A stretch of 64,000 nt of DNA from an uncultured Gammaproteobacteria bacterium (GCA_964394405.1 CAYMVY010000002.1:92-64091), one strand, 5' to 3'; shown: positions 952 through 56,696, numbered from the stretch's first letter. The notes: a model not told the origin generated them from the letters alone. Program-made: numbers and translations.

Positions 952-1011
952 GATTGCAAATATTAATTGACTATGGTTATATTATTCTAACTTCTGCAAG
1001 AGGAGAGTGCT

Positions 1012-1416
1012 ATGTTCCCGCGCCATGAGAGTGTCGTTGAGGGTGAATTCGAGGTTCTGGATGTCACGGACATCATGACAGCTACTGGTACGGACGAAAA
1101 TTCACTTAGACCGGTCACGGTCCATGTGGTGGTCTGGCTTCGGATCAAGAAGCCGGGAACGAGGAATAATGTGTACCGTGCGTACGGACAGTTCGTCTAC
1201 ACGAAAGGAAAGCATCCAACCTTTCGAGATGCGTGTCCGTGGCGTCGTGGTACGGTGATCCCCCATAAGTTCGTTGTTTCTATGCCGGTCGGGCTTACCA
1301 AGTGGTTTCGTACTACTTATGTGAAACCTGAAACTTCACGGAAACCCTTCCTCTGTAGTCAACACGGGGCGATTCTCAATCTCCAAGACTGGTGGGATTC
1401 AGTTCTCACTGCATGA
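1012..1416 (+). CDS. Hypothetical protein encoded in a high-GC islet with a strong SD (AAGAGGAGAG N5 ATG)
   Basis: GC content is clearly above surrounding genes. Codon third positions are G/C-rich. There is a canonical RBS, unlike neighbouring host genes. No family recognised. Confidence 0.6.
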   Translation: MFPRHESVVEGEFEVLDVTDIMTATGTDENSLRPVTVHVVVWLRIKKPGTRNNVYRAYGQFVYTKGKHPTFRDACPWRRGTVIPHKFVVSMPVGLTKWFRTTYVKPETSRKPFLCSQHGAILNLQDWWDSVLTA

Positions 1417-1466
1417 AGCCATGCGCCTGTGGTCCATCTGACTGCGGGCGCGTGCCTCTCTACATT

Positions 1467-1495
1467 AAAAACATCCCGAATTGGTCGGGATGTTT
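1467..1495. terminator. Bidirectional terminator hairpin (AACATCCCGA/TCGGGATGTT) between the convergent ORF 1012 (+) and recR (-)
   Basis: aaaacatcccgaattggtcgggatgtttt has a perfect 10-bp stem with an A-run 5' and a T-run 3'. Confidence 0.75.
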
Positions 1496-2094
1496 TAATT
1501 TGTAGTTCTATTCTTCAGTGCACTCGACAGCGTAATATCATCAGCGTATTGGAGATCGCTTCCCATGGGAAGTCCTCGTGCCAGTCGAGATACTTTTATT
1601 TGTGGGGCAAGCTCTTTAATTTTTTTTTCGAGGTACATCATGGTGGTTTCTCCGTATAAGTCAGGATTGAGAGCTAGGATTATTTCGTCAATTTGGCTTT
1701 TTCGTATCCGTGCAAGCAGTTCTGGAATTTTTAGACCTTTGAAGGAATTTTCATCATGACCTTTGATAAGTCCACGCAAAACATGGTACCCGCCTCTATA
1801 TGATCCTGTTTTTTCGATTACTTCACGATCCTGGGGTTCGGCAACCACACATACTGTCTTTGGGTCACGCTGGGGTGAATTGCAGATGGTACAGGGGTTG
1901 GTATCAGAAAAAGTCCAGCATAGCTCGCAACTCTTTACACTCTCAATTAATTCTTTGAGAGCAATCGTGAGTTCTGCGGCGTCTTTTTTTCCAGATTTGA
2001 GCAAATAAAAAACAAAGCGTTCCGCAGTCCGAGGACCAACGCTTGGAAGACTCGCGAACGCTTGGATGAGGTTTTGTATTGACTTAGAATACAT
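1495..2094 (-). CDS. recR: Recombination protein RecR
   Basis: N-terminal helix-hairpin-helix motif LPSVGPRTAERFVFYLL. C4 zinc finger CELCWTFSDTNPCTIC. Toprim region. Confidence 0.92.
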   Translation of the reverse strand: MYSKSIQNLIQAFASLPSVGPRTAERFVFYLLKSGKKDAAELTIALKELIESVKSCELCWTFSDTNPCTICNSPQRDPKTVCVVAEPQDREVIEKTGSYRGGYHVLRGLIKGHDENSFKGLKIPELLARIRKSQIDEIILALNPDLYGETTMMYLEKKIKELAPQIKVSRLARGLPMGSDLQYADDITLSSALKNRTTN

Positions 2095-9718: not shown

Positions 9719-9878
9719 CACTAATGCGATAGGATGAGGTTTGAGGTTAGTATTTTGGATTTTAATTATCGGCTCTGGTGAACAACCTTGATCCGACCCC
9801 TTTTCATTCTAAAGATTACAAGATGTAAGAATGAAGATTGGAATTTTCTTTTTACTTTTTACTTTTGACTTTACTATT

Positions 9879-10288: not shown

Positions 10289-10828
10289 ATGCCATCTCCA
10301 CTCAAAAAAGTTTCAGAAGAAATATTGCATGAAAATCCCTGGTGGAGATATAAGCATGATATTTTTTCTTTTCCTGATGGTAAAGAGGGGAGTTATTATT
10401 ATGGAGAGACATATGGTATGTCTATCATTGTTCCAATTTTGCCCGATGGGCGATTGGTGATGGTAAAACAATATCGATATTTAAATGACAGATACAGTAT
10501 TGAATTTCCTGGTGGAGGAATAAAAAAGGGAGAAGCCCCTTCGGCTGTTGCTAAGCGAGAATTGATGGAAGAAACTGGATTTTCTGCCAAAGAATTTATT
10601 AATATTTCAAATTTTGAACCTCACAATGGATTGTTCCTTGATTCGACTCATGTATTTATTGCCAAACAAATTTCACAAATTGATACTCATGAACCAAAGG
10701 GTGATGAGACAGAATTTATCGAAATCTTGCTGCGTCGACCAGATGAGATAGATCAGTTGATTCGGAATAATGAAATTTGGGATGGACAGACGCTCGCAAC
10801 GTGGGCAGTGGCACGGTATTATGTATAA
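10289..10828 (+). CDS. NUDIX hydrolase
   Basis: Nudix box GGGIKKGEAPSAVAKRELMEETG. Confidence 0.8.
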   Translation: MPSPLKKVSEEILHENPWWRYKHDIFSFPDGKEGSYYYGETYGMSIIVPILPDGRLVMVKQYRYLNDRYSIEFPGGGIKKGEAPSAVAKRELMEETGFSAKEFINISNFEPHNGLFLDSTHVFIAKQISQIDTHEPKGDETEFIEILLRRPDEIDQLIRNNEIWDGQTLATWAVARYYV

Positions 10829-12824: not shown

Positions 12825-12853
12825 CAAACCTTCTTATCAGAGAGGGTTTTTTG
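12825..12853. terminator. Terminator-like hairpin followed by a T-run after the rmlD-like gene
   Basis: caaaccttcttatcagagagggttttttg. Confidence 0.5.
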
Positions 12854-12970
12854 TTTACCATTGACACCAGACCGGAAAAGTGATATTTTTTTTAATCTTG
12901 TCCATTTCGGATCGGATCCCTATATGCCTAGGGTAATCGGCTATACTGCATTACAGGAGAGGGTGCCACC

Positions 12971-13591
12971 ATGGCACATAATTCTTCGTGGATCGAGTGG
13001 TTCAATACGCAGTGTATCGTTTCGTCGATGATCGTCGTCCCGAAGCCTATTCAGACCGTGCGTGGATGGGTGATGGATCTTCTTCGGGGATGGTTCGGTC
13101 GGACGGATGGTAAGTTCTTCCAGATGGTCGGGTTCGAGATCTCGGTGCCGAAGCCTGGACAGCGGGAGATCCCGAGCTGGGACCAGCCTCTGATCCAGGA
13201 GGTGGGCGAGGGAGCTCTCGGACTTCTCAAGGTCCGGGGAGAGGATCTGTACCTGGTCTCTGCCAAGGCCGAGCCGGGCAACAAGTCCAGAGGTCGGGTC
13301 CTCCTCGCGCCTAGCCTGCAGGCTTCCCGCTCCAACCTCGAGCAGGCGCATGGTGGCACCCTGCCGCCGCGTGCCGAATTCGCTCGAGAGTCGGGCGTCA
13401 AGTGGGTCGACTTCCTCAAGGATGGTGGCCGCTTCTTCGAGAGCACCAACCAGGCCGCGGTGATCGAGGTCGACTACTTCCATCCGAACTCGAACGAGCG
13501 ATGGTTCAGTCGCTACGAGCTCAGGGAGGCTCTCCTTCGCGGTGTGTGCAACGCACACCTTCGAGAGCTGCTCGCGCTCGCGTTCATCTGA
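12971..13591 (+). CDS. Single-domain NDP-hexose 2,3-dehydratase-like protein (Hexose_dehydrat family; Nudix-like fold), high-GC, with SD AGGAGAGG
   Basis: Motifs recalled for the TylX3/EvaA/EryBVI family: GKFFQMVGFEISV, WDQPLIQEVGEGALGLL, LVSAKAEPGN, LAPSLQASRSN..HGG, DGGRFFESTNQAAVIEV. It is 206 aa, half of the usual two-domain enzyme. It shows ~60% GC against a ~40% background. Confidence 0.6.
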   Translation: MAHNSSWIEWFNTQCIVSSMIVVPKPIQTVRGWVMDLLRGWFGRTDGKFFQMVGFEISVPKPGQREIPSWDQPLIQEVGEGALGLLKVRGEDLYLVSAKAEPGNKSRGRVLLAPSLQASRSNLEQAHGGTLPPRAEFARESGVKWVDFLKDGGRFFESTNQAAVIEVDYFHPNSNERWFSRYELREALLRGVCNAHLRELLALAFI

Positions 13592-13603
13592 GATAGAACG
13601 CTC

Positions 13604-13716
13604 GTAGATGTTCTTTTGTGGCCGTATCGGGGGGAGATACATCTCGATACGGCATCTGCAAAAAAGCCTTTCTTCAAGGGCTTTTTTGTTTTCAAGTTTA
13701 TTGATAATAGGCTTGA
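13604..13716. repeat. Left copy of a ~110-bp direct repeat flanking ORF 13773..14324; contains a palindrome and terminator-like hairpin
   Basis: gttcttttgtg...ccgtatcg/cgatacgg palindrome...acggcatctgcaaaaaagcctttcttcaagggcttttttgtttt...tattgataataggcttgac aligns with 14323-14455. Confidence 0.7.
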
Positions 13717-13775
13717 CTTTTTTGTTATATATGCTAATATCCTCTGTCCATCTGACCAGAAGGAGGTTCGAAATG
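13714..13775 (+). promoter_or_regulatory. Canonical sigma70-like promoter (TTGACT N15 TAATAT) and SD AAGGAGG upstream of ORF 13773
   Basis: ttgacttttttgttatatatgctaatat, then ccagaaggaggttcgaaATG. Confidence 0.55.
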
Positions 13776-14324
13776 GACGGGGCAATGTATGAGATACAAC
13801 AGGCAGAAATAGTTCGGGCGCTGAAAATGCTTCCGAACGGGAATGGTCCGCTGCCACACGACATCTTCGTTCAGATCGCACGCGCGTGGTACCTCATCGC
13901 CTTCGAGGCCGTACTCTTGCGCAAGGGGCAGGGTGGCATCGAGGTCTATCTGACTCAACGCGATCTGAGGGACGCGTTCTACCCTGGGGAGTGGCATGCG
14001 CCGGGTTCCATTCTCCTGCCTCGTGAGGAGGATGCTGACGTGGCTCGGCGGCTCGGCAAGAGGGAGTTCAAGAGCCCGATCACGGACAGCTCGTTGGTCG
14101 GGTGCAAGTTCCACCAAGAAGCACGGGGGTGGATGCTCTCGATGATCTTCCTCACCACGGTTCCGGACCTGTCGCACGCTGGTGGCACCTGGTACCCGGT
14201 CGACCGTCTGCCGAAGAATACCGTCTCGTCCCATGTGGACTTCATCATCCCCATGGCAGTTGCGGCCTTCAAGCGGCGGCACGGGTGGCGTGCCTGGGTC
14301 GGGAAGCTGCTCGGTCTGGTGTAG
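13773..14324 (+). CDS. High-GC Nudix-fold-like hypothetical protein (degenerate Nudix box)
   Basis: PGEWHAPGSILLPREEDADVARRLGKREF approximates GX5EX7REUXEEXGU but is off-register. GC content is high. It has a strong SD and its own promoter. Internal ATG at 13773 was chosen over the tracked 13608. Confidence 0.55.
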   Translation: MDGAMYEIQQAEIVRALKMLPNGNGPLPHDIFVQIARAWYLIAFEAVLLRKGQGGIEVYLTQRDLRDAFYPGEWHAPGSILLPREEDADVARRLGKREFKSPITDSSLVGCKFHQEARGWMLSMIFLTTVPDLSHAGGTWYPVDRLPKNTVSSHVDFIIPMAVAAFKRRHGWRAWVGKLLGLV

Positions 14325-14455
14325 TCGTTCTTTTGTGAAAAATTAGGGGTTGCCCTACCGGAGTGAAATAATCTTCGGTACGGCATCTACAAAAAAGCCT
14401 TTATTTTAAGGGCTTTTTTGTTTTACAAAAGCCTATTGGTTTGATAGGATTACCC
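14323..14455. repeat. Right copy of the ~110-bp direct repeat flanking ORF 13773..14324
   Basis: gtcgttcttttgtg...taccgg..cggta palindrome...acggcatctacaaaaaagcctttattttaagggcttttttgtttta...tattggtttgataggattac. Confidence 0.7.
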
Positions 14456-15643: not shown

Positions 15644-16501
15644 ATGCGAGTATCTGTTATTACGGTGACCTGGAATAGTAAGGAGTTTATTTTCAACCAA
15701 ATTGAATCTGTTAAGCGTGCGGCACAGAATATTCAGATTGAGCAGATTGTAGTTGATAATGCATCGACTGATGGGACTGTCGAGGTAATACAAGAGAGAT
15801 TTTCTGATGTTATAGTGATTGCAAATAAAGAAAATAAAGGATTCGGTGCAGCGAATAATCAGGGTGTGGAGATTTCGAAAGGGGAGTATGTATTGTTTCT
15901 CAATCCTGACATGAAGTTGGAACCAGGATCACTCGATATATTTGTTGATTGGATGGATACAAATCCAAAGGTTGGTATTGCGAGTCCAAAATTGGTTGAT
16001 GAGCAAGGTGTACTTAATTTGAACACAACTCCCCGTCGATTCCCACGAGTGTGGGAACAGATTGCGTTGATTGTTAAATTACCCCACCTTTTCCCCTCAT
16101 TTCTTGACGGGTATCGAATGAAGGGGTTTGATAGTACTAGAGAACAAGAGGTGGATTCGGTACAGGGTTCGTGCATGCTGGTACGAAGAGAATTGATTGA
16201 AAAATTGGGGTATGCCTTCGATCTTCGATATTTTATCTGGTATGAGGATGTCGATCTTTGTAGGGAGGCATATCGGCTGGGATACGTGGTTATGTATACG
16301 CCGGTCATTAGTGCGGTTGATTATAGTGGGCAGAGTTTTAAAAAACGGACGACTTTGTGGAAACAAAAACAATTTACTCGATCCATGCTTGTTTATTTTC
16401 AAAAATGGGAACCATGGTGGAAGTGGGTATGGATCGCAGTATTTAGACCAGTAGGAATTGGGATCGTCTGGATAGGGGAAAAAGTAAAAAGTAAAAAGTA
16501 A
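15644..16501 (+). CDS. Glycosyltransferase family 2
   Basis: MRVSVITVTWNS...DNASTDGT...NKGFGAANNQG...YVLFLNPD is the GT-A DxD-type fold. Confidence 0.85.
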   Translation: MRVSVITVTWNSKEFIFNQIESVKRAAQNIQIEQIVVDNASTDGTVEVIQERFSDVIVIANKENKGFGAANNQGVEISKGEYVLFLNPDMKLEPGSLDIFVDWMDTNPKVGIASPKLVDEQGVLNLNTTPRRFPRVWEQIALIVKLPHLFPSFLDGYRMKGFDSTREQEVDSVQGSCMLVRRELIEKLGYAFDLRYFIWYEDVDLCREAYRLGYVVMYTPVISAVDYSGQSFKKRTTLWKQKQFTRSMLVYFQKWEPWWKWVWIAVFRPVGIGIVWIGEKVKSKK

Positions 16502-16515
16502 AAAATATTTTTTAT

Positions 16516-23397: not shown

Positions 23398-23522
23398 ATT
23401 TTTAACGCAAAACTCAAATGTCAAAACGAAAAACTATAACTAAAAATTTAAAACTAACATACGATGTATAAAGTTTTAGATTTGAGTTATAGTTTTGAAC
23501 TTTGAGTTTTCAGTTTTGACTC
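23398..23522. repeat. ~125-bp palindromic dispersed element (AAACTCAAA / TTTGAGTTATAGTTT family), copy 1
   Basis: The left arm aaaactcaaatgtcaaaacgaaaaactataact mirrors the right arm agttatagttttgaactttgagttttcagttttg. Related copies lie at 33298-33402, 56599-56696 and 60096-60155. Confidence 0.7.
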
Positions 23523-23528
23523 TTATCT

Positions 23529-24797
23529 ATGGAATTAAACCAACCGACACGAAAGGAAAAATTTTTACGATTTGCATTAACCGGGGCGCTCATCCTGGGT
23601 GTTTTTGTTTCCGGAGTACTCACGGGAACTTCATATGGAATGCGAGCACTGCTTCGGGGGAATAGTGTATCTGCGATTACAAATGTGACTAATTTGTTTT
23701 CACACTCTGATACTACCAATGTTTCTTTTGATCAATTCTGGGAAGTGTGGAAAAAAGTGCAAGAGAAGTACGTGTATAAGCCAGTCACTAGTACAGATTT
23801 GTTCTATGGCTCAATGGTCGGAATGGTTGCTGCGCTCAAAGATCCGTACTCGGTATATATGCCTCCGGTCAAGGCAGAAGAATTCAAGCGTGATTTATCT
23901 GGCGAGTTCTTTGGTATTGGAGCTGAGATTGGTCTCAAGGAGACTCGAGTGACTATCATTGCTCCACTACCCGATTCTCCTGCTGAGAAGGCTGGTCTCA
24001 AGGCACAGGATGTTATCATCATGGTTGATGGAACAGATATTGCAGGAAAACCATTGGATGAGGTTATCAGTCTGATTCGAGGGCCAAAAGATACTGTCGT
24101 CACATTGACTGTGGTAAAGCAGGGGTCACAAACACCCAAAGAAATCAAGATTACTCGCGGTGTTATTACAGTTCCTACGGTAACATGGAATGTCAAAGAT
24201 GGATCGATTGTATATATGCGTATTAGCTACTTTAATGACACTACCTGGAATGAATTTGATAAAGCAGCTCGAGAAATCGTTGCGAAAAAACCCAAAGGTA
24301 TTGTACTCGATTTGCGGAGCAATCCAGGTGGGTATCTCGATACCTCGGTCAAAGTTGCGAGTGAATGGGTCACGAGCGGAGTTATCGTATATGAGAAAAT
24401 GAATGATGGATTCAGAGATCAGTATACTGCTGATGCTGGGAAGCATCGATTTGTGGGTATTCCGACTGTGATATTGGTCGATGAAGGTACTGCGTCAGGC
24501 TCAGAGATTGTGTCCGGAGCTCTCCAGGACTATGGAGTCGCGACACTTGTTGGTACAAAGACCTTTGGAAAAGGCTCGGTGCAGGATTTTGAATATTTTC
24601 CTGATGGATCTGCATTGAAATTGACGATTGCTGAATGGCTCACGCCTCATGAACGCCAGATCAATAAAGTAGGAATTGAACCTGATGAAACAATTGAAAA
24701 GATGTTTGTACAAAAAGAAGGAACTGATGGCACCTCACCAGATCATTTTGTTGATAAAGGTCTTGAACGTGCACTTGAATTATTACAGAAAAAATAA
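23529..24797 (+). CDS. Carboxyl-terminal processing protease (S41, CtpA/Prc-like) with PDZ domain
   Basis: PDZ segment GIGAEIGLK...PAEKAGLKAQDVIIMVDG. S41 catalytic region LDLRSNPGGYL. Confidence 0.85.
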   Translation: MELNQPTRKEKFLRFALTGALILGVFVSGVLTGTSYGMRALLRGNSVSAITNVTNLFSHSDTTNVSFDQFWEVWKKVQEKYVYKPVTSTDLFYGSMVGMVAALKDPYSVYMPPVKAEEFKRDLSGEFFGIGAEIGLKETRVTIIAPLPDSPAEKAGLKAQDVIIMVDGTDIAGKPLDEVISLIRGPKDTVVTLTVVKQGSQTPKEIKITRGVITVPTVTWNVKDGSIVYMRISYFNDTTWNEFDKAAREIVAKKPKGIVLDLRSNPGGYLDTSVKVASEWVTSGVIVYEKMNDGFRDQYTADAGKHRFVGIPTVILVDEGTASGSEIVSGALQDYGVATLVGTKTFGKGSVQDFEYFPDGSALKLTIAEWLTPHERQINKVGIEPDETIEKMFVQKEGTDGTSPDHFVDKGLERALELLQKK

Positions 24798-24810: not shown

Positions 24811-25164
24811 ATGCTTCATATTTCAGGAATTGTAGTTGAGGGAGAGAAGCGAGGGCGCGTCTTGGGATTTCCTACTGCGAATCTTGAGTTTAAGAAGCGT
24901 CTACATATCAGCCCAGGTATCTATGCCGGGTGGGTGATTGTGGGAAAGAAGAAGTACCTGGCAGGTCTCTATATTCCAGAGCCTATGAATCGAGTTGAAG
25001 CGCATGTGCTCGATTATACCGGTGAGTCACTGTATGGGGTGTTTATTGAAGTTGAAGCAGTACAGAAAGTGAGTGAGATCGAGAAGCATGATTCTGATGA
25101 GGAATTAGTTAAGAAAATTAAGAGTGATATTGAGATGGTGAGGGAGGTGTTGGGGAAGTCATAA
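24811..25164 (+). CDS. Riboflavin kinase domain protein (RibF C-terminal-like)
   Basis: GEKRGRVLGFPTANL motif. Internal ATG at 24811 chosen, because the tracked start overlaps ctpA. Confidence 0.7.
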   Translation: MLHISGIVVEGEKRGRVLGFPTANLEFKKRLHISPGIYAGWVIVGKKKYLAGLYIPEPMNRVEAHVLDYTGESLYGVFIEVEAVQKVSEIEKHDSDEELVKKIKSDIEMVREVLGKS

Positions 25165-25191
25165 AGTCCATAAAGTCGAAAGTCAGAAAGT

Positions 25192-25217
25192 AAAAATTCA
25201 CCGAGAGGTGAATTTTT
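25192..25217. terminator. Rho-independent terminator (ATTCACC-GAGA-GGTGAAT + T-run)
   Basis: aaaaattcaccgagaggtgaattttt. Confidence 0.8.
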
Positions 25218-25311
25218 GGTACTATTGACAAAAATTATAAAAAGGTGTAGTGTGATTTGTTTCGTGCTGGAAAAACACTATTCGTACTTTGTGGTACAAA
25301 GGATTGGATAC

Positions 25312-25821
25312 ATGAAGCGGCCTATTCCTAGTTTTCCTCCTGTGAATGGTGAGATGCTAATGCCCTGTGAACCGGATGAACTCCCAGATGATCTGCAGGG
25401 TGCATTACCGGATCCCTGTCAGGAGACTGCTGCACATACGTTCCTTCGTAACTCCCGTAACAAGGGTTGTTGGGTTGGTATGAGTGGGTCTGATTTTTTG
25501 GACCATCTTAACAGCTTTAGCAACCAGCGTATCTGGAAGTTCGTGTCCAAGAAGAAGTGGTATCAGTGGCTGTGCCGATCCAAGATCCATCCCCTGACTG
25601 TTCGCTGGGAACATCGGGGGGAAGGTCTGAATTATTCGGGTACTGACACCGATACGCTGTACGAGACGGACTTCTTTAGAGTCGGAATACACCGACTCAT
25701 CGAGTCACAAATGGTATTGCTCGTGCCAGGCAAGAAACCGGAAGCAACGATGATATTCCCGACGCCGCTTCTGGTCTCGACCCTCATGAAGCACCAAGCT
25801 CGCCAGCAAGTTCGCTCGTGA
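25312..25821 (+). CDS. Hypothetical protein in a high-GC islet with SD (AAGGA N8 ATG)
   Basis: GC clearly elevated. Followed by a GC-rich 15-bp-stem hairpin (25832-25867) lacking a U-tract. No family recognised. Confidence 0.5.
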   Translation: MKRPIPSFPPVNGEMLMPCEPDELPDDLQGALPDPCQETAAHTFLRNSRNKGCWVGMSGSDFLDHLNSFSNQRIWKFVSKKKWYQWLCRSKIHPLTVRWEHRGEGLNYSGTDTDTLYETDFFRVGIHRLIESQMVLLVPGKKPEATMIFPTPLLVSTLMKHQARQQVRS

Positions 25822-25919
25822 GCACGAAGCCGAGTCCGGGCGCACGACCAAGGTCGTCCCCGGACTCGCGCTGAATAACAAAAAACCGCGATGAAGCGGA
25901 TTTTTTATTTTGTTTTAAA

Positions 25920-26768
25920 TTACAATCTCTCCACCCAATGTTTATCAACTTCTACTTCAAGTTCGAGATATACTTTTTTTGCAAGTGCTTGTTCGAGTTC
26001 GCGGCGAGCCATTTGGCCAATTTCTTTGATACGCTTTCCACCAGCTCCGATAATTAATTTTTTGTACCGTTCTTCGTCAGTCAAGATTCTCGCAGTGATG
26101 ACAAAAATATCTTCTTTTTCTTCTACATTATCTACCTCTACGGTCATGGAATAGGGAACTTCTTTGTCAAAGACTGAGAATACTTTTTCACGGATAAGTT
26201 CTGAGATAAAGAAATATTCATGCACATTGGTGAGTTGTCCATCAGTATACATGGGTTCACCTTCGGGCATTAATTCCATTACTTTTTCTTTCAAAGGTTG
26301 GATATGACTTGCTCGAAGCGCTGAGAGTGAAAATACTGCGTTGAATTCTTTGCCGAGCATTTCATAGTCTTTTTGATGTCTTCGTTCACGTTCCGGAAGA
26401 TCACTTTTGTTTATAACTAGAATTTTGGGCAGATCAATATGTCGGATAAGCCCGAATGCGTATCGTTCCTCATCTCCAATTTCTCGGGTAGGGTCAACCA
26501 CATAGACAATCAGGTCTACTCCCTCGAGCGCTTCTTTTGCACGCTGGATAAGTTTACTCGTAAGCGAGCTTTTGCGGTCTTTGAAGATACCTGGAGTATC
26601 GACGAAGGTGATCTGTCCTTCAGACGTGTTTACTACCCCATGAATGACGTTTCGGGTCATTTGTGCACGAAAACTCGTAGCGGAAACTTTGGTTCCGACG
26701 AGGGTGTTTAAGAGGGTGGATTTTCCTACATTTGAACGGCCGATAAGGATTGCGAAACCGGATTTCAT
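25920..26768 (-). CDS. era: GTPase Era
   Basis: G1 GRSNVGKSTL, G3 DTPG, G4 NKSD. C-terminal KH domain. Confidence 0.9.
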   Translation of the reverse strand: MKSGFAILIGRSNVGKSTLLNTLVGTKVSATSFRAQMTRNVIHGVVNTSEGQITFVDTPGIFKDRKSSLTSKLIQRAKEALEGVDLIVYVVDPTREIGDEERYAFGLIRHIDLPKILVINKSDLPERERRHQKDYEMLGKEFNAVFSLSALRASHIQPLKEKVMELMPEGEPMYTDGQLTNVHEYFFISELIREKVFSVFDKEVPYSMTVEVDNVEEKEDIFVITARILTDEERYKKLIIGAGGKRIKEIGQMARRELEQALAKKVYLELEVEVDKHWVERL

Positions 26769-33297: not shown

Positions 33298-33402
33298 AAG
33301 CTCAAAACGTAAAACTCAAAGCTTAAAACTGGAACTAAAAACTCAAAATTTTAAGCTTTGAGTTATAGTTTTAAGTTTTGATATTTAAGCTTTGAGTTTT
33401 TT
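33298..33402. repeat. Palindromic AAACTCAAA/TTTGAGTT dispersed element, copy 2 (overlaps the 3' end of the NUDIX gene)
   Basis: ctcaaaacgtaaaactcaaagcttaaaactggaactaaaaactcaaaattttaagctttgagttatagttttaagttttgatatttaagctttgagtttt. Confidence 0.7.
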
Positions 33403-33802
33403 TTAAATACTCCTCAACAACAGCTCTTACATTTGGAGCACAATCTTCCGGTAGATCATTAATATCAAACCAGTTCCATTCAACAATATTTTCACCTGGT
33501 TTTATTTCTCCAATTCGCTTTGCAAGATAGTGGATAAGAATCACTAGTTTTTCTGGATGGTCTGGGCGATGTACGAGCATTGGTTTTAATGGTTGTATGA
33601 TTTCAACTTTAATTCCCATTTCTTCCATTACTTCACGTTTACATGCTTCTTCAAGTGAAATATCAAAAGATTCTACTTCTCCGCCAGGAAAAAGCCAGGT
33701 GGTAATTCGACCATTTTCTTTCTTCTCTTTATTAAGCAAAACTTTGCCATTTTCAATAATGACTGGTCCCGAGGCAATAATTGTTTGATCTGGTAGATAC
33801 AT
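33371..33802 (-). CDS. NUDIX hydrolase
   Basis: Nudix box GGEVESFDISLEEACKREVMEEMG. Confidence 0.8.
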   Translation of the reverse strand: MYLPDQTIIASGPVIIENGKVLLNKEKKENGRITTWLFPGGEVESFDISLEEACKREVMEEMGIKVEIIQPLKPMLVHRPDHPEKLVILIHYLAKRIGEIKPGENIVEWNWFDINDLPEDCAPNVRAVVEEYLKKTQSLNIKT

Positions 33803-33833
33803 AGGGCTTTATTATTAAGGTATTGTAACTAAG

Positions 33834-34260
33834 ATGGCGAAATATCACAAGCTGGTTTTGGTTGACTTTCGGTGGGATGTATTGTACGCTTTTTTGCGGA
33901 TTTTGCCCGAAGTACGGGCCCGTCACCCAAGTACTGTGGAGGTCAGTTCATGTTCACCCTGGTGTGCGTTATGGGGTTGTGGACCCAGATCATGTATGTC
34001 CCGGACAAGGGGAGGAAGATTTCTCGTGCACGGGACCGCAAGGGTCGTTGGCACGTCGGAGGGGTGGGGCAGCTTCCGAGGGGGCACTGTCGGAAATTCA
34101 GGAAGCCGCGTTGAGTGGCTAGGAGTGGTAGATCTGGGAACAGATCTTAGCTCAGGAGCGCTTTCCTGGATCCATCATGTCGTCGACGGGGCTGTGCATC
34201 GCACGGTCCCGTCAGTTCTCTTAACCTATTTATTCGAGCCCTATCGGGCTTTTATTATTT
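33834..34260 (+). other. High-GC ~430-nt segment, probably noncoding, ending in an intrinsic terminator; candidate structured RNA or decayed foreign gene
   Basis: All three forward frames are open with R/G/S/W/C-rich translations, typical of non-coding GC-rich DNA. Terminator gagccctatcgggcttttattatttt at 34236-34260. No RNase P, tmRNA or SRP signature motifs could be matched by eye. Confidence 0.35.
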
Positions 34261-34359
34261 TACCAAATAAAGTATTGACTTTATAATAATGTTCATATAT
34301 CCTATTGCGGTGCTTAGCTCAACCTCGGTCGAGTTGTGCCGTCAACCAGAGGAAACATC

Positions 34360-34566
34360 ATGTCAGATTCAGAAAGAAATGATCAGCCGCGCCCTCGGAG
34401 TCGCCGTCGAGTCCATACTGCCGGAGCTTTCGATCACATTCAACGTGTGCTCGTCGACGAAGAGCAGAACATGCGACCCTATCGGGACGTAGGGCATCAG
34501 CAGTCCGGAGTGCGTCTCAATGATGCATGCATCATTCCCAACCAGCGGCCGGACTACAAGTCCTGA
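34360..34566 (+). CDS. Small high-GC hypothetical ORF (68 aa) with SD AGAGGAAACATC-ATG
   Basis: GC-rich. Followed by a perfect 14-bp-stem hairpin ccaggaagactgtg/cacagtcttcctgg (34582-34614) without a U-tract. Overlaps an antisense ORF, so coding status is uncertain. Confidence 0.3.
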   Translation: MSDSERNDQPRPRSRRRVHTAGAFDHIQRVLVDEEQNMRPYRDVGHQQSGVRLNDACIIPNQRPDYKS

Positions 34567-34654
34567 TCCGTGATCCTCTTGCCAGGAAGACTGTGCTCTG
34601 CACAGTCTTCCTGGCTCCTTCGCCAAATTAAGAGAAGCTCCTAATAGGAGCTTC

Positions 34655-36352
34655 TTATGTTATTTCTTTAATCATGTATGTACCTTCTTTTTTGTAGCCA
34701 AGCTTTTCATAATATCCACGTACACCTACTCCGGAAATCACAGCGAGTTTTTTTACTTTATTTTCTTTGCTAATACGCTCAGCTTCAGCCATTAGTTTTT
34801 TACCGTATCCTTTGTGTTGACTACCGATTGTTTTTGTTTTTCCGATTCCGATCATTTGTCCATATACGTGTAGTTCTCGGATGAAAGCGCTGTTTGTTAG
34901 CTCGGGCATGAGTTTTTTTAAGTTTTCTAAGTTGGCTGAGTTAGCTAAGTTTTCTGAGTGGGGAATGCGTAAACGTAAGAAACCGTAGACGGCGATGCGA
35001 TTTTTGTCTTCCATTGAAATGAAATATTCTGTTCCGCCAATAGTTTCATATGTGTCAACAAAAATTTGTGGTTCTTCGTTTTCATTAATATTATCTTTTT
35101 GTCGATAAATTTCTCGGCAACGCAGACATTCGCAATGCTTTCCTTCTTTCTTTAATTGATATTCAAGCATCTCGCGCAAGTTGGTAATGATATTTCCATT
35201 CTCAATTTCTGTTGCAGGGATATCGCGAATGAGTCGAGAAATGCGGCAATAGCGGGGAGTCGCGAGTTTCATTTCGAGCAATGCCTTGAATAATCCTTCA
35301 TCGCCATACGATTTATATCGTCCATCAAGAAACCACTGATACAGCTCTGCGGATTTAATAACCGTGTTTGGATAAATTTTGATCATGTCTGGGCGAAGGC
35401 CTGGATCCATGAATATTTCTTTGTACATTTCTACATCATGCTCAGGGCTACTCCCTGGTAAATCAGGCATGAAATGCAAATCTACTTTGAAACCCGCTTC
35501 GCGAAGTAGGTAGATTGCCTCGCGGAATTGTTGTACTGTATGTCCGCGTTTGATTAATTCAAGAATTTTATTGTCTGTTGCCTGCAGACCTAATTCAATT
35601 CGGGTACAACCCTGAAGGCGCATATGGTGAATCGTTTTTCCCGAAATTGCGTCTGGTCGAGTCTCAAGTGTGAGACCAATAATACGATGTCCAGTAGATT
35701 CATTAATCGTTTGCTCTTTATCAAGAGCTTCCTGTAATTCAGTAAGAGGTCTATCATTCCAATATTCCTCACTGGTTGGACCAATTGGAACTTCACGGCT
35801 GAAATCATTGCATGCTTTGAATGATTCGAGAATGAACCAGTATTGATATTTAAGCGGATATGCATTCCATGTCCCACCTTTTAAAATATACTCAATTTTG
35901 TCAGTAGGGTGACCATTCACCTCAAGCATTTCGATGCGTCTCTTCATCTGTTCGTATGGGCTAAAATCAAGCCGTAGTGCTCGTGCTGCGGCGGGTTCGG
36001 TTGCAATATAGCTTTTGGGCATGCGGAGCTCAGTAGGGCAGTATACGCATTTTCCGGGGCAGGTATAGGGCTTTACCAATGAGGTTATAATTACTACTCC
36101 AGAAAGGGTACGTACATTTGCTTTGCGAAGAAAAAATTCCATTTGTTCGTCTGGTTCTACACTTTTCTTTTCGAGTAGACTCTGGTAGGCTATGAGCAGT
36201 TGTTGGTTTGCAGGTTGTTTGATTTTTAATTTCGAAGCGCCAAGTCTTTTTGCATCATCAAAATCCTCTTTGGTTTGAGGCTTGTATGCGACGATATATT
36301 CCATTAATTTTTCTGCTATTTCATTCATACGTATGTCGAAAGTTGACTTCAT
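34655..36352 (-). CDS. Elp3-like radical SAM / GNAT acetyltransferase (bacterial Elp3 homologue)
   Basis: Radical-SAM CxxxCxxC (CPGKCVYC). C-terminal GNAT (GYGKKLMAEAERI). 565 aa. It contains an in-frame 9-bp tandem insertion (ENLANSANLENL). Confidence 0.75.
   Translation of the reverse strand: MKSTFDIRMNEIAEKLMEYIVAYKPQTKEDFDDAKRLGASKLKIKQPANQQLLIAYQSLLEKKSVEPDEQMEFFLRKANVRTLSGVVIITSLVKPYTCPGKCVYCPTELRMPKSYIATEPAAARALRLDFSPYEQMKRRIEMLEVNGHPTDKIEYILKGGTWNAYPLKYQYWFILESFKACNDFSREVPIGPTSEEYWNDRPLTELQEALDKEQTINESTGHRIIGLTLETRPDAISGKTIHHMRLQGCTRIELGLQATDNKILELIKRGHTVQQFREAIYLLREAGFKVDLHFMPDLPGSSPEHDVEMYKEIFMDPGLRPDMIKIYPNTVIKSAELYQWFLDGRYKSYGDEGLFKALLEMKLATPRYCRISRLIRDIPATEIENGNIITNLREMLEYQLKKEGKHCECLRCREIYRQKDNINENEEPQIFVDTYETIGGTEYFISMEDKNRIAVYGFLRLRIPHSENLANSANLENLKKLMPELTNSAFIRELHVYGQMIGIGKTKTIGSQHKGYGKKLMAEAERISKENKVKKLAVISGVGVRGYYEKLGYKKEGTYMIKEIT
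34919..34958. repeat. 9-bp tandem units (RAGTTNKCT x4) within the Elp3-like coding region
   Basis: aagttttct aagttggct gagttagct aagttttct gagt, translated in frame as ...ENLANSANLENL.... Confidence 0.6.
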
Positions 36353-37460
36353 TTCCCAGAATAGAGATTTTTATGACATTATTGCTCCGTATTTTTCCAA
36401 TACCCGAGAGTTTTTGTGGGAAGATCTCAAAGATTTCTCCCAGTATATCACGAAGGATGATGCTGTTCTTGATATTGGGTGCGGGAATGGAAGAGTATAT
36501 CAATTATGCGAGAATTTGCAAGTAGCGTATACCGGGATTGATCAGAGTAAGGAACTTGTTGCGATAGCCCGAGAAAAATATCCGCAGGCACATTTTGATA
36601 TCGGAGAAATGACGACACTTCCATATGCTGATGCATCTTTTTCGGTAATACTTTGCATTGCAACGTTTAACCATCTACCAACTGTAGAAACTAGAATTCA
36701 GGCGCTCAAGGAAATGAAACGTGTACTGAAACCTGGAGGAGTTATTCTCATGACCAATTGGAATGTCTTGTCAGATAATGCGCAGAAATATATTGATAAA
36801 GGAAAATGGAAGATTGTAGATACTAATAGACAAGATGTCCTAGTGCCATGGATGACACCGATTGGTGAAAAAATGCCTGGCGATCGATATTATCATGGAT
36901 ATGAACTATCAGAATTATTTGATTTGTTTACCACTGTAGGATTTATTGTAGAACAGCAATATTATTCGAAAAAAGGAAAACGGAGTACAAAAAATGAAGG
37001 ACATAATATTGTAAGCATTATTAGAAATCAGTGGACTGGCGTACCTTCTGCTGGGGGAGTGGTAGTACGAAAAGAAGGGGAGGAATATTTTGTTGCTGTT
37101 GAAAGAGATGGGAGTTTGATTCAGGGCGAGTATTGGTTTATTCCCAAAGGTCATATGGACCCAGGAGAAACGCTTGAAGAAGCTGCACGACGAGAGATTG
37201 GCGAAGAAGTTGGTGTGACTGAATTGATCTATAATTGTTTTCTTATGAAAACTGAACGAGAAGCTGTGATTGGTGGTGAATGGAAGAATATGTATTATTT
37301 TTTGTATATTACTGAGCAAGTTGAATTGCAACCAACTGCAACTGATAAACCTCATGAAGCTCGATGGGTGAATTTGTTTCAGGATACACCGATTTCGTCG
37401 TTAGAGGAGCAAGAGAGAGTGTTTGAGATGGTGAGGAAAATAATTCGATCAGATGTATAA
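36333..37460 (+). CDS. Fusion protein: class I SAM-dependent methyltransferase + C-terminal NUDIX hydrolase domain
   Basis: MTase motif I VLDIGCGNGR, with post I/II motifs. C-terminal Nudix box GHMDPGETLEEAARREIGEEVGV. Confidence 0.75.
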   Translation: MSKVDFISQNRDFYDIIAPYFSNTREFLWEDLKDFSQYITKDDAVLDIGCGNGRVYQLCENLQVAYTGIDQSKELVAIAREKYPQAHFDIGEMTTLPYADASFSVILCIATFNHLPTVETRIQALKEMKRVLKPGGVILMTNWNVLSDNAQKYIDKGKWKIVDTNRQDVLVPWMTPIGEKMPGDRYYHGYELSELFDLFTTVGFIVEQQYYSKKGKRSTKNEGHNIVSIIRNQWTGVPSAGGVVVRKEGEEYFVAVERDGSLIQGEYWFIPKGHMDPGETLEEAARREIGEEVGVTELIYNCFLMKTEREAVIGGEWKNMYYFLYITEQVELQPTATDKPHEARWVNLFQDTPISSLEEQERVFEMVRKIIRSDV

Positions 37461-37481: not shown

Positions 37482-37850
37482 GTGTGGAGGTATATACGTT
37501 CTCACAATCGAGGAGAATTTAAGGATCGGCGACAAGACTTGCGCACATTTTCGACTAAAGCAGAACGAGTTTTGTGGCAAGAATTGAGAAAGCGAAAACT
37601 CAGATATAGATTTCGTCGGCAGTTTGGCATTACGACATATATTGTCGATTTTTATTGTCCATATTTGTGGCTTATTATTGAAGCTGATGGACCAATTCAT
37701 TTGAAACAAAAGGAACAAGATAAAAAACGCGAAGATTTTTTAAAATCTCGCGGATATACGGTTATTCGATTTACAAATGATGAAGTGTTGTTTGAACGAG
37801 AACGGGTTGTTGAGGAGATTAGGCGAGTGTGTCGAGAATTGGATGTTTAG
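37482..37850 (+). CDS. DUF559 / Vsr-like endonuclease-fold protein (GTG start, SD AAGGAGGGG)
   Basis: LWQELRKRKLRYRFRRQFGITTYIVDFYCPYLWLIIEADGPIH...GYTVIRFTNDEV matches the DUF559 pattern. Confidence 0.75.
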   Translation: MWRYIRSHNRGEFKDRRQDLRTFSTKAERVLWQELRKRKLRYRFRRQFGITTYIVDFYCPYLWLIIEADGPIHLKQKEQDKKREDFLKSRGYTVIRFTNDEVLFERERVVEEIRRVCRELDV

Positions 37851-37856
37851 CACGTT

Positions 37857-37943
37857 CTTCCCCCTTTCCCAAGGGGGAAGACAGAAGGGGGTATAAGCCT
37901 ATTCTACCCCACCCTGTCCCTCCCCTTGAGAAAGGGGAGGGAA
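37857..37943. repeat. Two adjacent GC-rich hairpins (CTTCCCCCTT..AAGGGGGAAG and GTCCCTCCCCTT..AGGGGAGGGAAC) between convergent genes; member of the CCCTCCCCT/AGGGGAGGG repeat family
   Basis: The same caccctg..ccctcccct-loop-aggggaggg core is found at 493-522 and 8053-8084. Confidence 0.7.
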
Positions 37944-39129: not shown

Positions 39130-39678
39130 TTACTCGAATAACATTTTTTTAAATTCTTCAAGTTGTCCTTTGTAATACAAGGTAAGAATATCAAGCGACA
39201 GATCTTTTGATTGGAAATTTGGATCGATGATAATTTCCATAAATTCATCAAAAGATACCAGCATTGGTGTGATTTTTTCTCCAGGATCGAGATTTTGTTC
39301 TGCAATTTTTTTGCATTCGCGTGCAATAAACGTTTGGATTGTCCAATCAATTCGAGTATATAAATTTTTTGTTGCCAATAGTTCCCATTGTTCTGACGCA
39401 TACCCTATTTCTTCAAGCATTTCTCGTTTTGCTGCATTGAGTGGTTGTTCATCCTTATCTTGTTGACCACCCACGAGACCATATCGTTCAGGATAGGTGG
39501 GTTGCGTCTCTTTTACTATTATTATCTTATCTTCAATAATTGGAAGTATTTGTACACTACCTGGTCGTCTGAGCATTTCAAATGTTTTGACGCTTCCATC
39601 AAATTGTTTTTGATCCCAGTGGTAGGCATCGAAGATTATTCCTTCGAATACTTTTTTTGCGTCTTTGGGTATGGGCAT
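39130..39678 (-). CDS. NUDIX hydrolase
   Basis: Nudix box GLVGGQQDKDEQPLNAAKREMLEEIGY. Confidence 0.8.
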   Translation of the reverse strand: MPIPKDAKKVFEGIIFDAYHWDQKQFDGSVKTFEMLRRPGSVQILPIIEDKIIIVKETQPTYPERYGLVGGQQDKDEQPLNAAKREMLEEIGYASEQWELLATKNLYTRIDWTIQTFIARECKKIAEQNLDPGEKITPMLVSFDEFMEIIIDPNFQSKDLSLDILTLYYKGQLEEFKKMLFE

Positions 39679-41056: not shown

Positions 41057-41089
41057 AAAGTCAAAAGTAAAAACGCAAAAGTAAAAAGA

Positions 41090-55670: not shown

Positions 55671-56600
55671 ATGAATATTTCCTTTGTTTCAAAACGAAAT
55701 TATTTCTTCTTGATCTCGATTGTATTTGTTGCGGTGAGTATCGTAAGTCTCATTATGTATGGTCTCAAACCAGGGATTGATTTTACGGGTGGCACCTTGG
55801 TTGAGTTGAAATTTACTCATGAGAGGCCAACTCTTTCAGAGATACAAGAAATTGTTCCTGAGTCGACCTATGGATCAAGTATTATCCAGTCTGTTGGAGA
55901 CATGGGATATCTGTTGCGTCTACGCTTTATCTCGGAAGAAGAACATCAGCAGATTCTTGCGAGTGCTCGGGAAAAATTTGAAGTAGCGGGAACAAGTGAA
56001 ACTCCTGAGAATCGAGTTCTTGAGGAAAGTATTGAGACTATCGGTCCTGCAATCAGTGAATCTCTGAGAGAGCGATCGGTCCAGGCGGTGATTGCGGTTT
56101 TACTTACGATTGGTGCCTATATCGCGTATACCTTCAGAAAAGTTTCACGTCCAGTCGCTTCGTGGAAATACGGACTTGCTGCTATTATCGCACTTTTCCA
56201 TAATATACTTATTACGATTGGTGTTTTTTCTCTTTTGGGACATTTTCATGGCGTAGAAGTCGGTATTTCGTTTGTACTCGCACTTCTCACGATTCTTGGT
56301 TTTTCGGTACACGATACTATTGTGGTGTTTGACCGTATTCGAGAAAACCTGAATCGATATGGGGCAAATGAGTTTGAGTCATTGGTCGATCGAGCGCTTA
56401 ATGAGACTTTTGTCCGTTCGATTAATACTTCGATTACGGTATTGATTGTATTATTCTCACTTTTTGTATTCGGAGGAGAATCAATCAGATACTTCGTACT
56501 TGCGCTGATTGTGGGCATCTTCTTTGGAACATATTCTTCGATTTTTATTGCGTCACCACTTTTGGTGGTTTCACATCGGTTGTCACGGAAGAGAGCGTAA
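55671..56600 (+). CDS. secF: Protein translocase subunit SecF
   Basis: LKPGIDFTGGT.., a 6-TM core, and its position after secD. Confidence 0.9.
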   Translation: MNISFVSKRNYFFLISIVFVAVSIVSLIMYGLKPGIDFTGGTLVELKFTHERPTLSEIQEIVPESTYGSSIIQSVGDMGYLLRLRFISEEEHQQILASAREKFEVAGTSETPENRVLEESIETIGPAISESLRERSVQAVIAVLLTIGAYIAYTFRKVSRPVASWKYGLAAIIALFHNILITIGVFSLLGHFHGVEVGISFVLALLTILGFSVHDTIVVFDRIRENLNRYGANEFESLVDRALNETFVRSINTSITVLIVLFSLFVFGGESIRYFVLALIVGIFFGTYSSIFIASPLLVVSHRLSRKRA

Positions 56601-56696
56601 CTCAAAACGTAAAGTTTAAAGCTTAAAACTATAACTCAAATCTCAAAGGTTTGAGTTTTTAGTTTCAGTTTTGCGTTTTGACATTTGAGTTTTGAA
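56599..56696. repeat. Palindromic AAACTCAAA/TTTGAGTT dispersed element, copy 3
   Basis: taactcaaaacgtaaagtttaaagcttaaaactataactcaaatctcaaaggtttgagtttttagtttcagttttgcgttttgacatttgagttttg. Confidence 0.7.

Follow-up and report, generated by a model that had tools for sequence, protein, structure and literature searches.

We analysed a stretch of 64,000 nucleotides (64 kb; CAYMVY010000002.1:92-64091), referred to as the window, on whose whole length all coordinates are given. In it, short GC-rich islets with open reading frames (ORFs) led by Shine-Dalgarno (SD) sites are set into a backbone of core genes that use another start signal. The backbone consists of about 56 genes with ordinary housekeeping functions by Pfam: DUF192, rplU, recR, ybaB and dnaB, a dTDP-sugar/glycosyltransferase cluster (rfbB-like, rmlD-like and PGI-like genes, four GT2 genes and a nucleotidyltransferase), murA, an S41 protease, flavokinase, era, rplI, pyrG, rarA, tsaE and glyA, as well as a radical-SAM enzyme, a Mur ligase, murB, hpf, secA, secD/secF and several Nudix hydrolases. 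The GC content is 41% (mean 0.41), and the GC skew rises steadily and is uniformly positive. At the RarA locus the nearest species-representative genomes were two metagenome-assembled genomes of Candidatus Magasanikbacteria, L044 (91% amino acid identity) and L002 (86%); more distant matches were other Patescibacteria. The sole homologue of ORF1, the gene of the first islet, also carries the NCBI name Candidatus Magasanikbacteria. Therefore, the host is a bacterium of the Magasanikbacteria group within the candidate phyla radiation (CPR), and not a Saccharibacteria-like episymbiont, a possibility that an earlier note on this DNA had raised. We take the window to be part of the chromosome of this Candidatus Magasanikbacteria (CPR/Patescibacteria) organism. 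Labels such as L044, L002, L127, L132, L133 and L082 denote comparison loci from related genomes or metagenome contigs.

Start signals of islet and host genes

Merging of 150-nt windows with a GC content of at least 0.50 yielded six islets with GC 0.50-0.57 compared with 0.41 on average (Table 1). GC at third codon positions (GC3) reached 0.76-0.86 in the islets versus approximately 0.35 in the backbone. By base composition, as used to recognize genomic islets, they are clearly unlike their flanks. SD sites were scored as the duplex energy of the region -21 to -3 against ACCUCCUUU with a threshold of ≤-6 kcal/mol. Seven of the eight islet ORFs have an SD (-5.9 to -12.9 kcal/mol); solely the ORF at 33834 does not (-3.9 kcal/mol). 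In host genes the median energy was -0.3, and 2 of 56 reached the threshold at the first start. Even when the best of all candidate starts within the first 40 codons was taken as an upper bound, this number was 8 of 56. The difference between islet and host genes was significant (Fisher p = 4.5e-7; 7e-5 against the upper bound; Mann-Whitney p = 2e-5). As a chance control, 16.6% of all + strand positions within the islets reached ≤-6 kcal/mol; against this background, a hand-computed binomial probability for six of eight ORFs was about 4e-4. Composition thus accounts for a part of the SD signal, but not for six out of eight. The purine tract ahead of TTG 531 is a hairpin 5' of the rplU promoter and not an SD; rplU starts at ATG 609 without one. 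The earlier note had described GC islets that interrupt an AT-rich backbone, are foreign to it in composition and signals, and carry SDs which host genes almost never have. All of this was borne out. In islet 2, its reading has to be corrected in that the second ORF starts at 13773, behind AAGGAGG, and not at 13608. The eight cassette ORFs all run along the + strand, the leading one if the positive GC skew throughout the window is taken as a guide; host genes split about 35 to 22 between the strands by our count.

Table 1. Positions of the islets, their signals and genes, and of an SD-led accessory gene (aa, amino acids).
Feature	Position	Strand	Remarks
GC islet 1	982-1533		GC 0.50
Islet 1 promoter-like site, TTGACT-N15-TAACTT	967-993	+	read from sequence; less canonical spacer; just 3' of rplU terminator (~929-956)
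Islet 1 SD, AAGAGGAGAG	998-1007	+	4 nt before ATG 1012; -9.4 kcal/mol
ORF1	1012-1416	+	134 aa, GC 0.51, GC3 0.54; lineage-restricted, function not assignable from families
15-bp GC-rich hairpin without U-tract	1420-1454	+	87-nt region folds at -44.2 kcal/mol, z -7.1
Host-type bidirectional intrinsic terminator (A-tract, stem, U-tract)	1468-1496	.	common to convergent recR; same junction in relatives
GC islet 2	12897-14423		GC 0.565
Islet 2 promoter A, TTGACA-N17-TATTTT	12861-12889	+	after rmlD-like terminator 12826-12852
SD of ORF A, AGGAGAGGG	12955-12963	+	7 nt before ATG 12971; -7.6 kcal/mol
ORF A	12971-13591	+	206 aa, single-domain NDP-hexose 2,3-dehydratase-like (Nudix-like fold); GC 0.61, GC3 0.76
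Cassette A 3' module	13618-13692	+	GC hairpin 13621-13653 and terminator; direct repeat of 14349-14423, 73% identity
Islet 2 promoter B, TTGACT-N16-TAATAT	13713-13740	+	consensus match
SD of ORF B, AAGGAGG	13760-13766	+	6 nt before ATG 13773; -12.9 kcal/mol; AAGGAG in L132, AAGGAGG in L133
ORF B	13773-14324	+	183 aa, Nudix-like, GC3 ~0.70
Cassette B 3' module	14349-14423	+	hairpin and terminator; second copy of 75-nt direct repeat
GC islet 3	25283-25948		GC 0.50
Islet 3 5' end	25195-25253	+	new flavokinase terminator 25195-25218 and promoter TTGACA-N17-TAGTGT 25225-25253; absent from L044
Islet 3 SD, AAAGGA	25298-25303	+	8 nt before ATG 25312; -6.4 kcal/mol
ORF3	25312-25821	+	169 aa, GC 0.51; length P = 0.001 versus shuffles
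GC hairpin without U-tract after ORF3	25828-25872	+	z -5.8; then conserved bidirectional terminator ~25880-25906
GC islet 4	33832-34663		GC 0.52
Islet 4a GC-rich segment	33834-34262	+	hairpin 34185-34213, terminator ~34236-34262; no SD, no convincing protein
Islet 4b cassette	34275-34615	+	promoter TTGACT 34275-34303; SD AGAGGA 34348-34353 (-5.9 kcal/mol); ORF 34360-34566 (68 aa); perfect 16-bp hairpin 34581-34615 (z -9.4)
SD-led accessory gene, DUF559/Vsr-like endonuclease	37482-37942	+	GC 0.38; GTG start after AAGGAGG; GC hairpin 37917-37942
GC islet 5	59405-59924		GC 0.52
Islet 5 cassette	59384-59840	+	promoter TTGACA-N17-TAGATT 59384-59412; SD AAGGAG 59495-59500 (-8.3 kcal/mol); ORF5 59508-59840
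GC islet 6	63734-end of window		GC 0.56
Islet 6 cassette	63707-64000	+	promoter TTGACA-N18-TATTAT 63707-63736; SD GGGAGGGGG 63812-63820 (-11.6 kcal/mol); ORF6 from 63824, runs off window

Host genes were found to share a different feature. U precedes the start codon (position -1) in 39 of 43 host genes that begin with ATG, compared with 26% at 303 internal in-frame ATGs (p = 6.5e-19). The frequency of U(-1) at host starts is 0.88-0.91, and no A-rich upstream position stands out. Examples are the starts at 609, 4085, 22081, 26868 and 48420. In ORFs called with TTG or GTG starts the first in-frame ATG is mostly U-AUG, and the resulting lengths match those of the orthologues in relatives. Most related CPR loci have the same pattern of U(-1) without SD; a Herpetosiphon control run with the same script had 67% SD and 17% U(-1). 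In many related CPR loci, e.g. L002, L005, L011-L013, L044 and L076, U(-1) amounts to 60-94%. From the sequence this looks like a four-base start signal, UAUG, in place of an SD. No report of a U(-1) start signal in CPR was found in the searchable literature. In E. coli a fourth base pair of U(-1) with the initiator tRNA raises initiation (PMC10018350). Possibly such pairing, with A37 of the initiator tRNA, is the main start determinant here. For these genomes, gene callers which rely on SDs would favor wrong starts, most of which could be corrected by a U(-1) rule.

The earlier note had pointed to TATAAT-like hexamers within about 10 nt of many ATGs and suggested leaderless initiation. However, a -10-like TAnnnT starting at -15 to -10 was present in 12 of 44 host genes compared with 9-10 of 44 at control offsets. 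As -10 boxes are not enriched at the distance that leaderless mRNAs require, a leaderless reading of host genes is unsupported and was discarded; the host signal is U(-1). The rplU gene has a leader of about 45 nt behind its promoter TTGACT-N17-TATATT.

Is the division into two signal classes peculiar to the window? This was examined in 33 SD-poor CPR loci with 602 ORFs. Twenty-nine strong-SD ORFs differed from the locus median GC by +0.064, 528 SD-less ORFs by -0.002 (Mann-Whitney p = 1e-6; 3e-6 without the window). SD-led ORFs were shorter (135 versus 289 aa) and encode varied small proteins such as zinc ribbons, membrane proteins and one kinase. The two classes of start signal in the window are real and statistically solid, and they extend to other SD-poor CPR lineages. 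In L086 (512-5444) five consecutive genes of near-backbone GC all have strong AAGGAGG-type SDs; they adjoin rfbB, rmlD and a nucleotidyltransferase with U-AUG and no SD. Signal classes can form blocks.

Layout and turnover of the cassettes

The islet genes are laid out as cassettes in a constant order: promoter, leader, SD at 4-9 nt before the AUG, one short ORF that is in most cases rich in GC and in codons ending in G or C, a long GC hairpin and a host-type terminator. The motif TTGACW-N16-18-TAnnnT has 17 matches in the window, six of which are located 34-96 nt upstream of islet ORFs. By this consensus match six cassette ORFs have a promoter of their own ahead of a single gene; islet 1 has an N15 variant, and its leader from promoter to start is shorter than in the other islets. 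The same promoter type precedes host genes, i.e. rplU, gene 53617 and a riboswitch operon. Directly 3' of the stop codons are GC-rich hairpins with stems of 12-16 bp and without a U-tract (z -5 to -9), each followed by an ordinary A-tract/stem/U-tract terminator. The earlier note had singled out two of these, those after ORF3 and in islet 4b, as a terminator style of high-GC bacteria. Both were recovered, with counterparts behind ORF1, ORF A and ORF B, and they differ from host terminators. When the window was scanned strictly for GC-rich stems of 11 bp or more, four were obtained, three of them in islets and one behind the SD-led ORF 37482-37850, a DUF559/Vsr-like gene that is absent from L044 and combines a host-like GC of 0.38 with a perfect AAGGAGG. 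This indicates that SD plus hairpin marks accessory genes generally, whether GC-rich or not. Among the islets, neither repeats nor common ends were found beyond the 75-nt module inside islet 2, nor a common regulator or motif apart from the generic promoter. Islet sequences are unrelated to one another and to GC-rich DNA at the same loci in relatives.

Almost always the cassettes adjoin intrinsic terminators, and in relatives the respective junctions are empty or filled otherwise. The cassettes have terminators of their own and are inserted between genes that are adjacent in relatives. At the syntenic sites islet 3 and the islet 1 junction proved to be accessory, i.e. absent in relatives, whereas islets 2 and 4 differ in content. 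The clearest case is islet 3. In the closest relative L044 the flavokinase stop is followed by 17 bp and then by the same bidirectional terminator as the one after islet 3; in the window the insert is 717 bp (25160-25876). At this site L002 contains a different 1.3-kb insert which includes a GC-rich 126-aa ORF behind AAAAAGGAGG. ORF3 had no family, PDB, phage or meaningful IMG/VR match. The islet 4 locus is also GC-rich in L044 (0.54) and L002 (0.52), yet unrelated in sequence.

Islet 1 is located at the convergent recR/rplU junction. In the window this junction is 574 bp long, compared with 30-140 bp in about 25 metagenome contigs of relatives. In L088, L090 and L120 the junction is filled with other GC-rich or SD-led ORFs. 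Those at L088 4770-5240 and L090 5497-6180 are homologous, Cys-rich and have apparent signal peptides; their GC3 is 0.87 and 0.68 in loci with 35% GC, a jump in composition more extreme than that in the window. ORF1 matched no Pfam, PHROG or PADLOC family, and a PDB sequence search was empty. Among 1.84 billion representatives a single homologous cluster was found (P0024), from Magasanikbacteria (52% identity by phmmer, 55% pairwise). The homologue in the sister Magasanikbacterium L127 is in the same place, between the rplU terminator and recR. It has a strong SD, GAGGAGGGAG, a GC of 0.505 and a GC3 of 0.61. The islet 1 promoter region is kept in L127, as is the hairpin downstream, with one-sided changes only (G-U/A-U, U-G/C-G). 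Between the window and L127, RecR is 89% identical at the amino acid level with proportions of nonsynonymous (pN) and synonymous (pS) differences of 0.063 and 0.74; ORF1 is 55% identical with pN 0.32 and pS 0.67. All alignment gaps in ORF1 are in frame. Because pN is below pS and gaps preserve the frame, ORF1 is a constrained but fast-evolving protein.

In islet 2 the interval between rmlD and PGI contains ORF A and ORF B in the window, ORF B and a 262-aa Nudix-like gene in L132, a low-GC, SD-less ORF B homologue together with ORF A and Nudix2 in L082, and ORF B with a Nudix2-like gene in L133, where the locus ends before PGI. ORF B and its L132 orthologue share 83% identity (pN 0.10, pS 0.35; GC3 0.70 and 0.82), while synonymous divergence (dS) of neighboring host genes is 0.7 to >3. 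In the ORF B family the SD is kept down to 47% identity; the L082 homologue matches Pfam NUDIX. ORF A matched Pfam PF03559 (E = 4.6e-27, 95.2 bits compared with a curated cut-off of 25) and the PDB entry of EvaA, 4j7g (E = 2.3e-21). The 22 homologues found are all single-domain proteins of 192-253 aa. ORF A fits the deoxysugar cluster around it with rfbB-like, rmlD-like and nucleotidyltransferase genes. It resembles EvaA-type NDP-hexose 2,3-dehydratases in its PF03559/EvaA match and the dTDP-sugar setting. However, it has one Nudix-like domain (206 aa) whereas EvaA has two in tandem (~470 aa), and unlike EvaA it occurs together with small, separately encoded Nudix-like partners, ORF B or Nudix2, the combination of which varies from genome to genome. 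Genes of the Nudix fold are unusually frequent here (10289-10828, 13773-14324, 33371-33802, 36282-37460, 39130-39678; L082 5352-7483; L132 8680-9468). Several of the variable cassettes are Nudix-like (ORF A, ORF B, Nudix2 and the 262-aa gene), and islet 4 adjoins a host Nudix gene.

These data suggest that the islets hold moron-like accessory cassettes which come from an SD-using, generally GC-richer pool and turn over at terminator-adjacent junctions of a host that itself uses U-AUG without SD. To this reading we assign a probability of about 0.6. At least eight small cassettes would have entered the spaces between core genes, nearly always next to an intrinsic terminator, and each would be a self-contained expression unit with a sigma-70-type promoter of the host's own kind. 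In related genomes they would be gained, lost and swapped at the same junctions, probably via recombination in or next to terminator sequences together with homologous exchange of flanks. The cassette proteins appear to evolve several times faster than neighboring core proteins. The host ribosome may retain a usable anti-SD so that cassettes are translated, the hairpin may stabilize or terminate the transcript, and the ultimate source may be a poorly sampled, GC-richer, SD-using pool.

Could the segments be junk, that is, environmental DNA captured at tolerated intergenic sites, with ORFs and SD tracts as by-products of GC- and purine-rich composition? The share of SD-like + strand positions in islets given above would fit, as would the facts that most ORFs have no homologue, that a clean ORF is lacking in islet 4a and likewise in the GC-rich DNA which L044 and L002 carry at this locus, and that the AlphaFold single-sequence model of ORF1 was unusable at low confidence (pLDDT 42). 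On the other hand, ORF lengths exceeded those in shuffled islet sequence in five of seven segments tested (P = 0.001-0.014; for the stop-free run of ORF1 P = 0.014), and SDs in six of eight ORFs are more than composition would give. In every cassette the promoter is suitably spaced from the ORF and the 3' end is an ordered succession of hairpin and terminator. ORF1 and ORF B are conserved as proteins, with gaps that keep the frame, and ORF A has a recognizable enzyme domain in a matching sugar pathway. Capture of junk is thus very improbable. The exceptions in the length test were islet 4b, for which length alone was not significant (P = 0.15), and islet 4a. The latter has a stop-free run with P = 0.01 and is possibly a decayed cassette.

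GC-rich patches of AT-rich genomes are frequently RNA genes. As the contigs are metagenomic, assembly chimeras from mis-joined reads of other organisms have to be considered as well. Yet the single Rfam match at gathering threshold in the whole window, an AdoCbl-II riboswitch (63525-63591, -), lies outside the islets. A permissive Rfam scan of islet 4 gave nothing credible, and islet 4a folds no better than shuffled sequences (z -1.4). Host DNA is present on both flanks of every islet, and orthologous islets occur in assemblies of other samples (L127 and L132, both from sample ERZ27275549; L082, L083). For islets 1-3 both explanations are refuted, and on the whole they are extremely improbable.

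Further candidates were rejected. Integron cassettes were ruled out on anatomy, i.e. own promoters and near-perfect GC stems; attC cores (RYYYAAC/GTTRRRY) were not visible by eye at the hairpin ends, a pattern search not having been run. For a phage origin, no credible PHROG match was obtained for GC-rich islet ORFs (ORF5 was marginal, E = 0.01), tblastn of ORF1, ORF3 and ORF5 against 50,697 phage records returned nothing, and IMG/VR scans of ORF3, ORF5 and ORF6 gave only a marginal match of 30 residues. PADLOC was empty for defense systems among the GC-rich islet ORFs.

Origin, age and putative translation of the cassettes

The earlier note had proposed a recent transfer from a donor with high GC and SDs; an actinobacterial host would fit if the recipient were a Saccharibacteria-like epibiont. 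Such a transfer would have left the islets unameliorated and maybe silent. The differences in GC, GC3 and SD are real, ORF A is distantly related to actinobacterial EvaA, and islet 3 is missing in the closest relative. Terminators of high-GC bacteria have been described as hairpins without a U-tract, which the islet hairpins resemble. However, the organism belongs to the Magasanikbacteria, and the sister lineage has orthologues of islets 1 and 2 in the same positions, which likewise have a high GC and an SD; synonymous sites of host genes are largely saturated there (pS 0.45-0.75). This indicated that islets 1 and 2 predate the split or were exchanged along with their flanks, and that this genome has not newly imported them. 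Recent acquisition therefore does not hold for them, whereas the accessory status that it implied does, as islet 3 demonstrates. A firm date could not be derived from amelioration because synonymous sites are too saturated and too codon-biased.

A distant donor did not emerge either. The nearest homologues of ORF1, ORF A and ORF B reside on contigs of Magasanikbacteria order or CPR type and are nearly all GC-richer than their own backbones. For ORF1 this is the single Magasanikbacteria cluster; for ORF A the nearest relatives (31-57% identity) are single-domain proteins on mostly CPR-type, low-GC contigs, with the two-domain actinobacterial EvaA as a distant relative only. A search of 15 billion proteins gave no actinobacterial-like match for the ORFans, despite the good sampling of Actinobacteria. 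Purifying selection acts on ORF1 and ORF B. Hence, an actinobacterial donor is not supported, and this model of recent transfer is improbable. The earlier note had itself named closest homologues in low-GC relatives at the same GC as an outcome that would speak against transfer, and the ORF A family comes close to this.

The ORF A family was compared across eight low-GC contigs, the window and seven others, most of which have Magasanikbacteria-type gene order or U(-1) starts (L130 looks non-CPR). The excess of ORF A GC over the backbone was +0.22 in L130, +0.21 in L082, +0.20 in the window, +0.15 in L137, +0.12 in L085 and L131, +0.11 in L086 and 0 in L128. Most ORF A copies on these contigs have an SD-like tract, and many are neighbors of rfbB-rmlD. 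This raises an alternative, namely that GC-rich, SD-led genes are a resident class that is kept vertically, with composition and SD under selection, e.g. for a separate, conditional mode of initiation. Such a class would resemble the SD-led rpsU of Bacteroidia, translated by ribosomes with a free anti-SD, and this precedent (PMC9976891, PMC13000453) favors it. So do the kept SD of the ORF B family and the avoidance of internal SD-like motifs in core genes. Against it, cassette content varies between close relatives, most junctions are empty, and the cassette proteins are mutually unrelated, with the generic promoter as the sole common element. Moreover, the versions of ORF A in L128 and of ORF B in L082 are low in GC and have no SD; both states are thus found in nature, and the GC-rich, SD-led one is not obligatory. 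We consider a resident class unlikely.

Are the cassettes translated? Coding sequences were compared with synonymous-codon shuffles in 118 host-like genes (115 kb) from the organism and those closest to it (window, L001, L134, L044, L002, L132, L133). SD words were avoided: observed/expected was 0.63 for GGAGG (z -6.0), 0.45 for AGGAGG (z -3.9) and 0.53 for GGAGGT (z -3.2). The controls GGTGG, GAGGG and GGAGA gave 1.28 (z +4.2), 0.97 (z -0.3) and 0.96 (z -0.7), respectively. In a wider set of 448 genes GGAGG was at 0.64 (z -9.3). The internal avoidance of GGAGG hints at a working anti-SD. Translation of the cassettes is further favored by the perfect SD of the DUF559 gene, the SD conserved in the ORF B family and the host-type promoters, none of which proves it. 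Complete silence appears unlikely in view of rplU-type promoters, purifying selection on ORF1 and ORF B and the avoidance of SD-like motifs by the host. A bolder possibility is that of two translation channels: the core would be read via the U-AUG quadruplet and the cassettes via a retained anti-SD, with GC-ending codons and SD selected and the accessory set gated as a block. We give this poor odds. In a radical version the cassettes may be built for a different translation apparatus, e.g. that of a host bacterium.

Several points weigh against moron-like cassettes from an SD-using pool. Across 31-57% identity, members of the ORF A family exceed the GC of their backbone in seven of eight low-GC contigs, and many of them lie within the same sugar cluster; this persistent excess is explained neither by a single recent transfer nor by vertical descent with amelioration. 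A donor was not identified, and for five of the eight ORFs neither a homologue nor a family was found. The window contains no integrase, transposase or tRNA gene (nor is there one of the former by Pfam among the islet ORFs) and no shared flanking repeat apart from the 75-nt module of islet 2; these hallmarks of mobility being absent, the mechanism of insertion is deduced from junction anatomy alone. The comparison of presence and absence in relatives covered islets 1-4. Neither the window nor about 135 comparison loci contain rRNA, hence no 16S 3' end is available there. The reverse complement CCTCC is likewise depleted (0.62), so the avoidance of GGAGG may not be related to the ribosome. Finally, about half of the Parcubacteria are reported to lack the CCTCCT anti-SD motif (PMC9297842).

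Relation to known systems and minor observations

Phage morons, a term of Hendrix and colleagues, are reportedly autonomous extra genes between conserved phage genes. The cassettes share with them a short gene with its own sigma-70 promoter and terminator between genes adjacent in relatives, a composition unlike that of neighbors, variable presence and an often unknown function. They differ in that they are situated on a CPR housekeeping chromosome (flanked by rplU, recR, era, glyA, secA) and not in a phage or prophage, have no PHROG, GenBank-phage or IMG/VR match, and add a distinct translation signal and a GC hairpin before the terminator. Genomic islets of atypical GC are similar in GC and GC3, patchy distribution, the many ORFans and the position next to terminators and between convergent genes. 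In contrast, the islets described here are small (0.4-1.5 kb) with one or two genes, they lack integrase, tRNA and flanking repeats, and their nearest homologues are in the same lineage and GC-rich, too, with the GC excess of ORF A extending across deep divergence.

In Bacteroidia, according to PMC9976891 and PMC13000453, the anti-SD is sequestered, upstream adenines mark the starts and rpsU is SD-led. The likeness lies in core genes without SD (2 of 56 with SD here; most related CPR loci are alike) and in few strong-SD genes; retention of the anti-SD, at which the avoidance of GGAGG hints indirectly, may be a further one. The host context, however, is U(-1) and not A at -3, -6 and -12, and the SD-led genes are accessory ORFans instead of rpsU. 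With respect to quadruplet pairing of U(-1) with A37 of tRNAfMet, U directly 5' of AUG is the dominant feature of host starts (91%). In E. coli this pairing is a modest modifier on top of an SD (PMC10018350), whereas here U(-1) is near-invariant and takes the place of the SD; for CPR the pairing would be the putative mechanism. The components, i.e. islets of atypical GC, SD-poor lineages and the U(-1) effect, are known. The combination of near-invariant U(-1) in CPR, a sharply distinct SD-led cassette class in which promoter, SD and hairpin have a fixed arrangement, and a GC excess persisting in at least one family was not described in the searchable literature.

Start-codon choice without SD is only partly understood, and CPR are not yet genetically tractable. 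The locus offers a natural contrast within one genome, about 56 U-AUG genes without SD and eight SD cassettes behind the same promoter type. If this contrast is functional, the 16S tail should carry CCUCC and the cassette mRNAs should be bound by ribosomes. If the GC/SD state is indeed maintained and not transient, it would represent a new kind of partition between gene classes. In addition, the cassettes are markers of the accessory genome in Magasanikbacteria and show at which junctions next to terminators insertion recurs.

Some minor features may be added. ORF5 (110 aa) has a CxxC...CxxC pattern with sub-threshold hints at a zinc finger only (length P = 0.014). ORF6, with a GC3 of 0.86 over the part within the window, is completed on L134 as a protein of 98 aa (8833 to 8537, minus strand), after which a second GC-rich segment follows. 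The AdoCbl-II (B12) riboswitch lies behind the promoter TTGACA-N16-TACAAT (63645-63618) and upstream of two DUF4430 genes (62834-63418, 60667-62853) and a DUF6580 gene, which suggests a cobalamin-related uptake operon. Host intergenic regions contain AT-rich repeat families with a 9-nt period (AGTTTTGAG, AGTTTTAAG, AAAGTAAAA and similar) at 23404-23534, 33301-33400, 56599-56700 and 60081-60150, with shorter runs at 2410-2486, 9844-9874, 16473-16506 and 41056-41102. They occur in both orientations, often immediately 5' of gene starts.

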